A stretch of 64,000 bases of DNA from a phage, in sequence record PV805638.1; one strand, written 5' to 3'. A program made the translations under genes and the position numbers. Of this stretch, positions 26,077 to 28,714 are shown piece by piece. Each line of letters begins with the position of its first letter. The stretch's first letter is position 1. The notes beneath the pieces are model-generated. The model had not been told where the DNA came from. It did no database searches and worked only from the letters and a program-made list of their open reading frames with translations.

Positions 26077-26526
26077 ATGCAAATCGTTCTGAACCAGTCT
26101 GAAGTAGAAGCTGCTATTGAAGCTTATGTAAATGAGCAAGTTAATCTTGCCGGGGACATTAATATCCTGGTGAATGCAGATGGTACTGCCACAATCGGTA
26201 TTAATGAAGAGGCCGGTCATAGTGATGACACTCCCCCCGTGGTAGAGAAGAAGACTCGTCGTTCTCGTAAGAATCCACAAGAAGCCAAACACCGTCCGGT
26301 AGAACCGGAACCGGTTGTTGAGGATGAAGCCGAAGAAGAGGTAAAGGAAGAAGAAATCCCGACCTCTACTGGTGGACCGAACGGGAGTTCTACGCCGGAA
26401 CCTGAAGAAGTAGTAGCTGAACCAGAAGCACAAGAAGAAGTTGTGCAGGAGGAAGTTAAGGCAGAAGAACCAGCAGAGAAACCTGCTGCGAAGCCTTCAC
26501 TGTTCGCTGGCCTAAAACGTAGTTAA
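26077..26526 (+). CDS. Highly acidic Glu/Pro-rich protein
   Basis: C-terminal half is an EPEPVVEDEAEEE-type low-complexity tail. Confidence 0.35.
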   Translation: MQIVLNQSEVEAAIEAYVNEQVNLAGDINILVNADGTATIGINEEAGHSDDTPPVVEKKTRRSRKNPQEAKHRPVEPEPVVEDEAEEEVKEEEIPTSTGGPNGSSTPEPEEVVAEPEAQEEVVQEEVKAEEPAEKPAAKPSLFAGLKRS

Positions 26527-27294
26527 TCTGGTAGGTGGCTCAGAAGCTGCTGCTAGGTGTGGTAGTGTTTATAGTTCTGATGCTACTACTGGTCAGGATT
26601 ATAGACGTGTCGGCTCCATACATAGCTTTTATCATCACTGTCATTATCCTGTGGAAATGCAGTGGTAAACACGGTGGTGACAAGCCGCCAGAATAACAAC
26701 AACCGAACCAGTGGATTGGAATACTCTCCCCAGTCCATTGGTTCAACCGAGGCTGATATGAACAAATTTACTATTCACTGGCTCAATGGAAAGGTTAGTT
26801 CTTTCATGGGTGGAGAACCTGTTGAAGGAAGCATTGAAAAAGAGTAGTTAATATCGTGAAGGGTTCTGTTAGAATCCTTTGAGATAGGAACTCCTATCAT
26901 AACCATTCTTAACTTAATCCTGCCGTATGGCACTGACGCTAGGGGTGGCCCCCCATCCGTCAGACAGACTATTTTAAGAATAGGTTATCACAGAAAATGT
27001 AAAGCAACATTTGGGTTAATCAATGGCCTCTCCTATAGGGGCCATTTCTGAATCTCAGGCTATATCCCAAAGATTAGTGTCTTTGGGATAAGGCTTCAGA
27101 TCCCTTATCAAACTAACGCTCATGTTGAGCACAACATTAACCAATAATGTCGGATAGTTCGTTACGCTATTCATTCAGCATCGAGATGTTAGGTCTTACA
27201 TGTAAAATAAAACATAGGGTAAAGAGGGACTCATCCTCCCTCTCCTATTATAATGGTCGAGGTAGCACGTAGGCATGTGTAGAAGGTCGCTACT

Positions 27295-27565
27295 TCTCTC
27301 GCTGGTTCGAGTCCAGATGCCGGAACCAATTCGTGAGAACTCTTATCTTGGCTACCGGGAAAGGAGTGAAAAATATTCGTAAACTACTCCCCAATTAGGT
27401 TCAACTCCTAAACCAGGGTAAGTGTTCTCACAAATTGGAAGAATTAAGACGGGTCTGGTGAAGTAGATGGGGTTCGATTCCCTCCGGTGGAGTAATCCAC
27501 TAGCGTGCTTGGTGCACGAATAAGACTTAATACTGGTGGTTCGATTCCATCCCCCGTTACCCGAA
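27295..27565 (+). other. Cluster of tRNA-like T-arm/acceptor elements; canonical cloverleafs not confirmed
   Basis: GGTTCGAGTCC (27304-27314, followed by ...ACCA), GGTTCAACTCC (27398), GGTTCGATTCC (27471 and 27538). Matching 5' acceptor strands were not found by hand. Confidence 0.3.
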
Positions 27566-27971
27566 GTCGCCAGGTACTTATGGCAAACAACGAGGTAGTA
27601 ACGAACTAGTCATTCGTCAAACGCCTCACCTAATTATGAGTCAGCAAGAGCGCCTTCACTTAAACTTAAACAAAAAAGCTTAACGCAATAATTATGTAGG
27701 GGTATGTAAGGATTGCGAAGAAGGAGCCAGTTAGAGCCTGGCATGACTCTCCCATTTAGCAGTAACATAGTCCTGATTGCATAGCACTCTAAAGACAACA
27801 CTGGTAAGACAGTCCAGTGGCTGCTAATGTATTGATATTCCCCTCGACGGGAATTTCGCTAGTGAAGGTAACACTTAAAAATCCAAACCTACGTCTTACT
27901 ACTATCGGGCTATCAACCCACTAGTGATAGTAGTTTGACGGCCTGCCTCGTTGACTGCGTTAAAGTCACTA

Positions 27972-28010
27972 AGTCCCTCGGAGCCGTCACTCTGGGGGAC
28001 TTTTTTATTT
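27972..28010 (+). terminator. Putative terminator closing the ORF-free region
   Basis: agtccc...gggact stem followed by ttttttattt. Confidence 0.4.
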
Positions 28011-28439
28011 GAGAACTACTTATTGGACGATTCATATGATTGACCTAATCTTAACCCCGTATGCCTATGAGGTAACGGATAACCGAGGACGTAAGTCTTT
28101 GGTGTTTGCAGGTAGCGTAGCCTATAACAACGCAGTCATGTTTAAATACAAACTTAAACCGCTCTATGAGGCTAACAATGGAATTTGATGATTTAGATTT
28201 TGAAGCTATTGAAAAGGCGAACCAGGAGAAACTGGAACAGGCTAATCGTGAAGCTGAAGAGTTGGAAAACGCTAAAGATAACAACGATTGCACTAGTGGT
28301 GGTTGCACCATTTAACAAACAGGTATATGGTAGTTTTTACCGAAAGGTACTAAACTACCCGACATGTAGTAAGGCTCATGAAGCCAAAACAAAACAAGCC
28401 CTCTTAGTGAGGGCTTTCTCATATCTGTAGGAAACTATT

Positions 28440-28670
28440 ATGACGCAAGTATCTATTACCTCTGTTGTTCGTGAAGCCATTCTCAATAATACCGTCCGTA
28501 CGTATTCATTCGATGAAATCGCAGAGAAGCTAGGAGTAACTCGTTACGTAGCTAAAAAACTCTACTTCACATTCCTATGGTTCCCTACGGAAGAAACATT
28601 ACGGAAGATTAAAGAGACTGGTAAATTTCCAAGTGAAGGACGTAAGCCTAAAATGTGGAAAACACCCTAA
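28440..28670 (+). CDS. Small HTH-like protein
   Basis: 'SFDEIAEKLGVTRYVAKK' HTH-like segment; convergent with the virion RNAP gene. Confidence 0.35.
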   Translation: MTQVSITSVVREAILNNTVRTYSFDEIAEKLGVTRYVAKKLYFTFLWFPTEETLRKIKETGKFPSEGRKPKMWKTP

Positions 28671-28682
28671 CTTCTAAAAGCA

Positions 28683-28714
28683 AAGCCCCTCTTTTGAGGG
28701 GCTTTCTTATTTTA
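28683..28714. terminator. Bidirectional terminator between convergent genes
   Basis: aagcccctc-tttt-gaggggctt hairpin with T-rich tract on the plus side and a U-rich tract in the minus-strand transcript. Confidence 0.6.

Follow-up and report, generated by a model that had tools for sequence, protein, structure and literature searches.

What does a compact phage genome encode in 1.2 kb that holds no sizeable gene? This question is raised by positions 26850-28020 of the window studied here, a stretch of 64,000 nucleotides (nt) from phage record PV805638.1, to whose positions all coordinates refer unless another phage or locus is named. Sequence comparison identifies this phage as a G7C-like N4-type coliphage (Gamaleyavirus, Schitoviridae), as the region is 95% identical to that of G7C, and the open reading frame (ORF) of the virion RNA polymerase (vRNAP; 3759 amino acids, aa) lies downstream on the opposite strand. 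An earlier reading of the sequence (the original prediction) had noticed in this region clustered 11-mers resembling transfer RNA (tRNA) T-arms, and had proposed three options: tRNAs that are degenerate or unusual, processing signals resembling tRNAs, or RNAs of another class. According to our results, the region is likely a reduced tRNA island, that is, an array of small stable tRNA-like RNAs that would be processed by host enzymes and represent analogues of RNA C and RNA D of phage T4. Three of its modules, E2, E3 and W, are under selection for structure according to the alignments, since their compensatory covariation exceeds that of shuffled controls and of controls in which pairing partners were slid.

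Covarying RNA modules in a region without ordinary tRNA genes

The clustering of T-arm-like 11-mers was confirmed: the motif GGTTCRANTCC occurs four times in the 64-kb window, always on the + strand (27304, 27398, 27471 and 27538; motifs 1 to 4), the four copies lying within 245 bp, against a mean of 0.17 copies per 64 kb in shuffled sequences, none of which (0/100) reached four. Motif 1 is indeed followed by the ACCA that had been pointed out, in the context TGCCGGA-A-CCA (27318-27328). These motifs fall in three separate units, namely E1 and E2 with one each, and E3 with two. Across the whole window, ARAGORN called neither tRNA nor transfer-messenger RNA (tmRNA) genes, and Rfam gave no match at gathering thresholds; when the search was relaxed to E<=10 over positions 26500-28500, only local matches of 11-13 nt to the T-arm of the tmRNA model (RF00023) were obtained, with 10.9 and 6.3 bits as compared to a gathering score of 47. 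A canonical, relaxed or pseudo-tRNA identity was discarded given the lack of ARAGORN calls, and tmRNA was likewise rejected, as only T-arm fragments match RF00023, no tmRNA was called and no tag ORF is present. Hence, the clean canonical tRNA predictions that would have made the region ordinary did not appear in either program, and the lack of covariance-model support, which had been named as the other unfavorable outcome, holds for Rfam only: models built from relatives of the modules provide strong support.

E3 is an RNA of about 113 nt with motifs 3 and 4 (Table 1), aligned here in 12 distinct sequences (alignment A1) from Gamaleyavirus, Kaypoctavirus, T4-like VR5, TH40, PEi20 and CkP1, and one metagenomic contig. 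Compensatory changes were detected at 14 of its 27 pairs by RNAalifold and at 15 of 27 in a separate pair count, with all five helices represented; 98.1% of paired cells were compatible with pairing, against 37-56% with partners slid, and the observed covariation was reached by 0/500 shuffles. The corresponding covariance model (R1) assigns 115-131 bits to E3 members and less than 30 bits to everything else. While the original prediction had reported no 5' acceptor partner for any T-arm, this was mistaken for the fourth one, whose acceptor stem GACGGG/CCCGTT comprises 6 bp supported by covariation plus a mismatched seventh pair. An upstream search for 7-mer acceptor partners returned weak candidates only for motifs 1-3, and recovered the true E3 partner at 27448 with 6/7 positions. 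The site of the D-arm is filled by a T-loop hairpin, and hairpin b has a 4-nt loop in the window and loops of other lengths among relatives; lacking both a D-arm and a canonical 7-nt anticodon loop, E3 does not qualify as a decoding tRNA. In T4-like arrays, it nevertheless takes a tRNA slot, being located 1-3 nt from the flanking tRNAs: in VR5, the order is tRNA-Met (2394-2467), E3 (2484-2599) and tRNA-Arg (2602-2677), and in PEi20 and a related contig E3 starts 1-2 nt after the end of a tRNA. A scan of metagenomes added only 7 copies, which were near-identical and N4-like. A wider E3 family, sought in IMG/VR with a loose 'ACTTARTA plus T-arm' pattern, was discarded, as none of the 49 loci retrieved exceeded 29 bits and most corresponded to ordinary tRNAs.

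E2 consists of a long stem and a three-way junction, in which the T-loop hairpin stacks directly on the 3' strand of the stem. The arms of a canonical tRNA are not found in it: there is a single arm with a loop of 16-18 nt, and the long stem replaces the acceptor. In the consensus, this stem has 23 pairs; in the window, where it corresponds to inverted repeat I1, it has up to about 34. In 11 distinct sequences (alignment A2: N4, G7C, Pylas, FSL SP-058, KpCHEMY26, TG1, phiR1-RT and two metagenomic contigs), compensatory changes were observed at 15 of 33 pairs, with 94.8% of paired cells compatible with pairing as compared to 36-52% in slid controls, and again no shuffle (0/500) reached the observed value; the junction and loops are almost invariant. 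With the E2 model (R2), the + strand obtains 132 bits, as compared to 37 bits for the - strand. TG1 and phiR1-RT are T4-like Yersinia phages that carry E2 within their tRNA regions. Taken together, E2 or E3 occur in the tRNA regions of the T4-like myophages VR5, PEi20, CkP1, TG1 and phiR1-RT, and in other N4-like subfamilies, and both are 75-90% identical between N4-like and T4-like phages, with nearly invariant loops and junctions. Six E2 pattern matches in genome contigs were attributed to chance, given that the E2 model assigns them no score.

The core of E2 was found in at least three different stem frames, and these frames bear other apical inserts in other phages. Two long-stem frames are conserved, CCAATTC...GAATTGG and CCTATCAATGAGTAC...GTACTCTTTGATAG, their apical inserts being wholly different between phages (L002 2750-2830; L006 5262-5365 and 5862-5930; L029 1425-1515 and 1895-1975; L034 2490-2610); the E2 core is held by one of them in N4, G7C and the window, and by the other in Pylas, SP-058 and KpCHEMY26. 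On alignment, the swapping of inserts between the two frames looks like an exchange of cassettes at hairpin tips.

W, the third module, was found in 85 phage records from Gamaleyavirus, Enquatrovirus and Kaypoctavirus. Besides the helices listed in Table 1, it has a small third hairpin. Compensatory changes were present at 11 of its 21 pairs, and 96.8% of paired cells were compatible with pairing, versus 23-46% in slid controls (alignment A5, n=9).

The G-U pairs of E2, E3 and W are valid on the + strand only, which together with the strand preference of the E2 model indicates that the functional molecule is the + strand RNA; the upstream genes and the terminator that closes the region lie on this strand as well. 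These observations bear on the possibility that the hairpins act as DNA, either as targets of recombination or homing endonucleases, or as replication or packaging signals. The island is a recombination hot spot, as seen from the deletion between T-arms and from apical inserts that have been swapped; in G7C, the edge of the locus holds an HNH homing endonuclease gene, and segB is located inside the tRNA cluster of T4. Nonetheless, a role at the DNA level is very improbable: many of the conserved + strand G-U pairs would turn into A-C mismatches when read on the opposite strand, both the T-loop consensus and the geometry of acceptor and T-arm are characteristic of RNA, and a transcription terminator bounds the unit.

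The tRNA island in relatives and its reduced allele

Comparison with relatives shows that the ORF-free stretch is orthologous to the tRNA cluster of N4-type phages, of which it constitutes a strongly reduced allele. The orthologous interval, placed between the gp47/gp47.2 genes and a rho-independent terminator, carries tRNA genes in relatives: Asn, Ser, Thr, 'Undet' and Pro in N4-type phages; Asn, Asp, Pro, Ser and Gln in Kaypoctavirus; and the odd Ile(aat), Cys(aca), Ala(cgc) and '???' in Gamaleyavirus. These islands are up to about 1 kb longer, and contain tRNAs as well as further tRNA-like modules (X, U, V, Y and Z). E2, E3 and W are unannotated among the records matched (about 100 in GenBank), two of which carry over-called small ORFs instead. 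No homologues of E2 or E3 were found in 5,426 complete E. coli genomes, and a host or prophage origin was accordingly rejected.

A module map, constructed by BLAST comparison of the window with its relatives, revealed an array that is colinear across three genera, with presence/absence polymorphism of individual modules. The consensus order is Block A - [Ala-like] - [Z] - [Cys-like] - [preX-X] - [U or E2] in the 5' half, followed by [E3 or V] - [Y] - E4 - [tRNA???] - [Ile(aat)] - W - E5b - terminator in the 3' half. In the window, the modules are Block A, E1 (an Ala-like/X chimera), E2, E3, E4, W, E5b and the terminator, which makes this allele, along with that of G7C, the most reduced in the map; all tRNA genes have been lost from the window phage. 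Most of the 1.2 kb corresponds to Block A, E4, W and E5b, i.e., structured RNA without any T-arm.

A common terminator, a module order that is colinear over three genera, very negative structure z-scores, and a long-range helix in Block A with a variable peripheral insert might suggest that the 1.2 kb constitutes a single large ornate non-coding RNA such as GOLLD or ROOL, in which tRNA-like domains are part of one fold. GOLLD and ROOL are, like the island, non-coding, highly structured, phage-borne, and adjoin or contain tRNAs. We consider this alternative improbable. E2 and E3 are present in T4-like phages alone, without the other modules, and the modules are individually dispensable; the island modules are separable and occur singly in other phages. 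In addition, the 5' and 3' blocks share no conserved pairing, the sole long-range repeat (I3) requires an insertion specific to the window, and no Rfam match to GOLLD, ROOL or any other family was obtained, even at E<=10.

A deletion in the history of the island is recorded in E1. Its 5' part (to 27310) matches a 'tRNA-Ala(CGC)-like' gene of relatives (L006 5180-5251), and its 3' part (from G27311) matches element X (L006 5790-5856) along the T-arm, the acceptor 3' strand TGCCGGA, the discriminator A and CCA; element X is a 66-nt three-arm tRNA-like gene, recorded as 'tRNA-Undet' in N4-type records. The crossover lies inside CTGGTTCGA (27302-27310), a sequence shared by the T-arms of both parents. 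In 10 records (Bp4, ECBP1, St11Ph5 and PD38 among them), about 600 bp separate the two halves, and the fused junction was found elsewhere only in Shigella phage Moonfish. Since the acceptor strands GGTCGAG (5') and TGCCGGA (3') are unpaired and cannot pair, E1 is a dead chimera. The alignments thus identify E1 as a tRNA pseudogene that arose by recombination between the T-arms of neighboring tRNA-like genes, with deletion of about 510 bp: its halves come from different intact genes, the junction lies in shared sequence, and the fold has been lost. That no acceptor partner had been found for motif 1 is explained by this fusion of two genes. G7C lacks even this remnant, as the segment equivalent to 27252-27322 is absent. 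Regarding the degenerate or unusual tRNAs that had been proposed, the suggestion was right in spirit, with E1 being the degenerate chimera and the other three motifs belonging to E2 and E3, which are conserved and non-decoding.

In principle, the whole region might resemble E1 and constitute a graveyard of decaying tRNA genes, with T-arms as the slowest-decaying remains and nothing functional left. E1 is exactly such a dead tRNA, modules are freely lost and gained between close relatives, and both the window phage and G7C live without an ARAGORN-detectable tRNA. Such a graveyard is nonetheless distinctly improbable, because the helices of E2, E3 and W have been kept by compensatory double changes across genera and even phage families, and the near-invariance of E2 and E3 loops and junctions between N4-like and T4-like phages is not expected of dead genes.

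A protein-coding role is more improbable still. As previously noted, no ORF of at least 60 aa is present within 26850-28020 on either strand, the longest having 55 and 52 aa. Small proteins below this cut-off could be encoded, and the GenBank records of Mimir124 and Bas96 do annotate many small hypothetical proteins in the region; yet nine small ORFs of 34-55 aa in it had no PHROG matches, indels between close relatives have lengths of 71, 4 and 1 nt, which are not multiples of three, and substitutions track base-pairing rather than codons. Coding of small proteins is therefore extremely unlikely.

Several observations were made on the islands of relatives. Their tRNAs include anticodons unusual for bacteria, namely Ile(AAT), Cys(ACA), Ala(CGC) and Arg(GCG), as well as the '???' tRNA with a 2-nt anticodon call (L002 2409-2488 and 3244-3401; L006 5180-5251; L011; L030 1844-1920), and the Ala-like tRNA has an atypical D-arm (6 bp with a 4-nt loop) and a pyrimidine at position 37. 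At least five more unannotated modules are present: X (L002 2554-2620), U (L002 2626-2750), V (L006 5931-5995), Y (L006 5996-6105) and Z (L006 5356-5530). In X, U and V, an acceptor-like stem is combined with a T-arm or T-like arm, and the ACCA end is encoded; Z is common to Enquatrovirinae and Humphriesvirinae (Pylas). In Klebsiella phage Pylas, the island holding E2 and Z also carries a tRNA with a CTA anticodon annotated as tRNA-Pyl (L034 1140-1215), which from its sequence would be effectively amber-reading.

Candidate maturation, function and comparison to known RNAs

An acceptor/T-arm minihelix suffices for RNase P, T-arm stem-loops suffice for TruB and TrmA, and double-stranded RNA of at least 20 bp is a substrate of RNase III. 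With these activities, a route for the expression of the island can be proposed. It would be transcribed as a single precursor, either by read-through from the replication-gene block or from its own promoter-like site at 26848-26875, and the precursor would be cut by host tRNA-maturation enzymes. RNase P could act at the E3 acceptor/T-arm helix, leaving a mature 5' end at G27448, and RNase III on the 23-34 bp E2 stem, releasing the apical domain of E2. The ACC(C/U) tail would be the target of exonucleases and of the CCA-adding enzyme, the latter completing the ACC tail of E3, and TruB and TrmA might modify the T-loops. The resulting RNAs would be small and stable, as are RNA C and RNA D from the tRNA region of T4.

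As to function, the strict conservation of T-loops, the GG and junctions favors tRNA mimicry, in which the RNAs would bind or titrate a host or phage factor that recognizes the tRNA elbow or the acceptor arm. Phage tRNAs have reportedly been proposed as a counter to tRNA-targeting defenses, and it may be speculated that the tRNA mimics of the island act against such defenses. A bolder proposal is that E2, E3 and W, together with X, U, V, Y and Z, are exchangeable tRNA-mimic cassettes that travel between N4-like podophages and T4-like myophages in tRNA islands; in E3, the second T-loop hairpin would replace the D-arm, giving a T-loop/T-loop 'elbow', and the RNAs would be decoys for host factors that read the tRNA shape, serving counter-defense or takeover. 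Possible targets include tRNA-targeting defense nucleases and tRNA-modifying or -processing enzymes. We hold this proposal to be unlikely; if correct, it would offer a handle on the role of RNAs of the T4 RNA C and RNA D type.

RNA C and RNA D are products of the T4 tRNA region with no known role (PMC3014915). Like the island RNAs, RNA C (species 1, rnaC) and RNA D (species 2, rnaD) are small non-coding RNAs, of about 120-140 nt, co-linear with tRNA genes, and the island RNAs resemble this class in location, being encoded on the tRNA strand within a phage tRNA cluster. In T4 rnaC, the 3' 95 nt (L014 1909-2003, - strand) adopt a tRNA-like fold, with a 7-bp acceptor CGGAACG/CGUUUCG and a T-arm CCGGG-UUCGAAU-CCCGG preceded by ACUUAAUA, a linker motif also present in E3, whereas the second, internal T-loop hairpin distinguishes E3 from rnaC and rnaD. 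By analogy, E3 may work like rnaC-type RNAs. An orthology between E3 and rnaC was rejected, considering that a VR25-type phage has both, the score of 20 bits and the lack of sequence homology, and so was a relationship of E2 with rnaD, suggested by eye from a shared GCTACCGG string, for which there is no model match. In BLAST searches, rnaC and rnaD had homologues in T4-like loci (rnaC in TG1, and rnaD in VR5 and TH40), and none in the window or in N4-like loci.

Other systems resemble the modules in part. Canonical phage tRNAs, e.g., N4 tRNA-Asn, -Ser, -Thr and -Pro, have the locus, the strand and the T-arm consensus in common with the island, and E3 additionally has an acceptor stem and a tRNA slot; in contrast, the anticodon arm with its 7-nt loop and the D-arm are lacking in E2 and E3. 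Variants of the tRNA shape are also found in mascRNA, viral 3' tRNA-like structures (TLS), the tRNA-like domain of tmRNA and the bacterial Y-RNA-like YrlA. An acceptor/T-arm minihelix and a GG 'D-loop analogue' are shared by these RNAs and E3, and in YrlA and E2 a long stem is capped by a T-loop domain, the resemblance being one of architecture only in both cases; this shared architecture implies recognition by tRNA-processing or tRNA-binding proteins. No Rfam match to the mascRNA, TLS, tmRNA or Y-RNA families was found in the window, and none of the GOLLD or ROOL covariance models matched.

A number of points weigh against the reading as an island of processed tRNA-like RNAs analogous to those of T4. 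The homology of E2 and E3 to T4 rnaC and rnaD is not demonstrable from sequence: rnaC scores 20 bits with model R1, level with ordinary tRNAs, and model R2 has no match in the T4 region. As many as 14 of the 15 covarying E2 pairs are in the outer stem, and part of this signal may reflect cassette exchange between stem frames and not step-wise compensation, although the alignment indicates that pairing is maintained under either process. Variation is too low for a covariation test in Block A, where only 2 pairs covary, and too low to reveal covariation in E4. Promoter-type consensus matches are no more numerous in the region than in shuffles. Moreover, no literature was found on small RNAs of N4 or G7C, or on transcriptomes or processing of this locus in the phage or its relatives, and a function as tRNA mimics is purely inferential.

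Odd tRNA-like small RNAs have been known in phage tRNA islands since T4, so the kind is not wholly new. What the comparisons indicate to be new is the set of three covariation-supported RNA families, E2, E3 and W, which neither Rfam nor any of the annotations contain; the architecture of E3 with its two T-loops and the sharing of E2 and E3 by N4-like and T4-like phages; and an allele without tRNAs that keeps E2, E3 and W and bears a clear scar of T-arm recombination. Phage tRNA islands are usually annotated only for the calls of tRNA finders, which here leaves more than 1 kb of conserved structured RNA blank, and the covariation support for the three modules is on par with that of many curated RNA families. 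The sharing of E2 and E3 by N4-like and T4-like phages shows horizontal exchange and selection independent of decoding, and a tRNA-free phage that keeps the modules offers a natural experiment in which the function of tRNA-like RNAs can be told apart from the supply of tRNAs. The role of such RNAs, with T4 RNA C and RNA D as classic cases, has been a question for about 50 years, and small deletable modules in coliphages that are easily grown make it testable. The E1 scar, in turn, documents T-arm-mediated recombination as a force that reshapes tRNA islands.

Remaining blocks, signals and neighboring genes

The island starts directly after the final small gene of the replication block, and constitutes one non-coding unit on the + strand; its features are collected in Table 1.

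Table 1. Features of the non-coding island and its borders in the 64,000-nt window.
Feature	Position	Strand	Basis or remark
gp47.2-like ORF, 29 aa	26758..26847	+	ends just 5' of the non-coding island
Second-longest ORF in the region, 52 aa	26775-26933	-	ORF listing
Sigma-70-like promoter candidate, TTAATA, 16 nt, TG-n-TAGAAT (extended -10)	26848..26875	+	consensus scan
Block A, structured 5' domain	26848..27250	+	several hairpins and a long-range helix
Block A long-range helix	about 27000-27020 with 27183-27210	+	RNAalifold
E1, chimeric dead tRNA (motif 1 at 27304)	27255..27328	+	ungapped alignments and folds
E2, long stem and three-way junction	27322..27440	+	11-sequence alignment A2
E2 outer stem	27327-27353 with 27411-27437	+	alignment A2
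E2 hairpin P2	27363-27368 with 27385-27390	+	alignment A2
E2 T-loop hairpin TTAGG-TTCAACT-CCTAA, holding motif 2 (27398)	27395-27411	+	alignment A2
E3, tRNA-like RNA, about 113 nt	27446..27565	+	12-sequence alignment A1
E3 acceptor stem GACGGG/CCCGTT	27448-27453 with 27553-27558	+	covariation
E3 invariant GG	27457-27458	+	A1
E3 internal T-loop hairpin, motif 3 (27471)	27469-27483	+	A1
E3 hairpin b, variable in sequence and length	27486-27501	+	A1
E3 hairpin c, conserved UUGG loop	27504-27518	+	A1
E3 conserved linker GACTTAATA (elsewhere given as GACUUAAUA)	5' of true T-arm	+	A1
E3 true T-arm, motif 4 (27538)	27535-27551	+	directly abuts acceptor 3' strand
E3 3' end: discriminator A, then CCC	A27559 onward	+	A1
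E4, conserved non-coding block	27565..27745	+	alignment A6
Longest ORF in the region, 55 aa	27634-27801	-	ORF listing
E4 terminal hairpin GCCAG-TTAGAGC-CTGGC	27726-27742	+	counterparts in N4 and Kaypoctavirus, judged by eye
W, structured RNA, about 70 nt	27757..27826	+	alignment A5
W helix P1	27757-27763 with 27820-27826	+	A5
W inner hairpin, conserved loop UAAGACAGU	27799-27804 with 27814-27819	+	A5
E5b, structured variable 3' block	27831..27970	+	RNAfold, inverted repeat I6
E5b hairpin	27892-27906 / 27926-27940	+	inverted repeat I6
Intrinsic terminator closing the island	27971..28010	+	13-bp stem, 7 GC pairs, T-run

Block A has a RNAfold z-score of -6.6 relative to shuffles (26848-27135) and is near-invariant in Gamaleyavirus, with few substitutions, which are G-U compatible or located in loops; outside this genus, BLAST retrieved no counterpart. 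Its long-range helix encloses a variable site, where some relatives have an extra hairpin. E4 is also near-invariant in Gamaleyavirus, with a mean column identity of 94% (A6) and z = -2.4. In the window, E4 bears a private 4-nt insertion (AACG, 27589-27592), which creates an 11-nt complementarity to 27943-27953, near the terminator; this complementarity is lacking in relatives and probably fortuitous. A long-range pairing of E4 with E5b (repeat I3) was rejected, given that it depends on this insertion. The segment 27745-28015 (E5) has z = -4.4, and E5b is 88-89% identical to its relatives, with indels.

At the end of the region, the hairpin followed by six T of the original prediction corresponds to an intrinsic terminator, with a GC-rich 13-bp hairpin at 27971-28002 and a T-run on the transcribed strand; it is annotated as rho-independent in G7C and conserved in relatives. 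At the other end, the promoter-candidate sequence is invariant across 10 relatives.

Upstream, the 29-aa gp47.2-like ORF matches positions 1-25 of phrog_14773 (E 1e-16), and is a truncated allele of the 56-aa gp47.2 of G7C; its shorter length is due to a 62-bp deletion relative to G7C. The HNH homing endonuclease gene gp47.1, present in G7C (L001 1003-1500), is lacking in the window, where positions 26723-26765 align to both flanks of the G7C gp47.1 insert, indicating that a repeat of about 43 bp flanks the insertion in G7C. Downstream, between the island terminator and the vRNAP gene, positions 28037-28670 contain a few small + strand ORFs. Two more terminator-like hairpins lie beyond the island terminator (28396-28416 on the - strand and 28682-28705 on the + strand), and one of these hairpins, which lies directly against the stop codon of vRNAP, is recorded in the G7C annotation as a bidirectional terminator.

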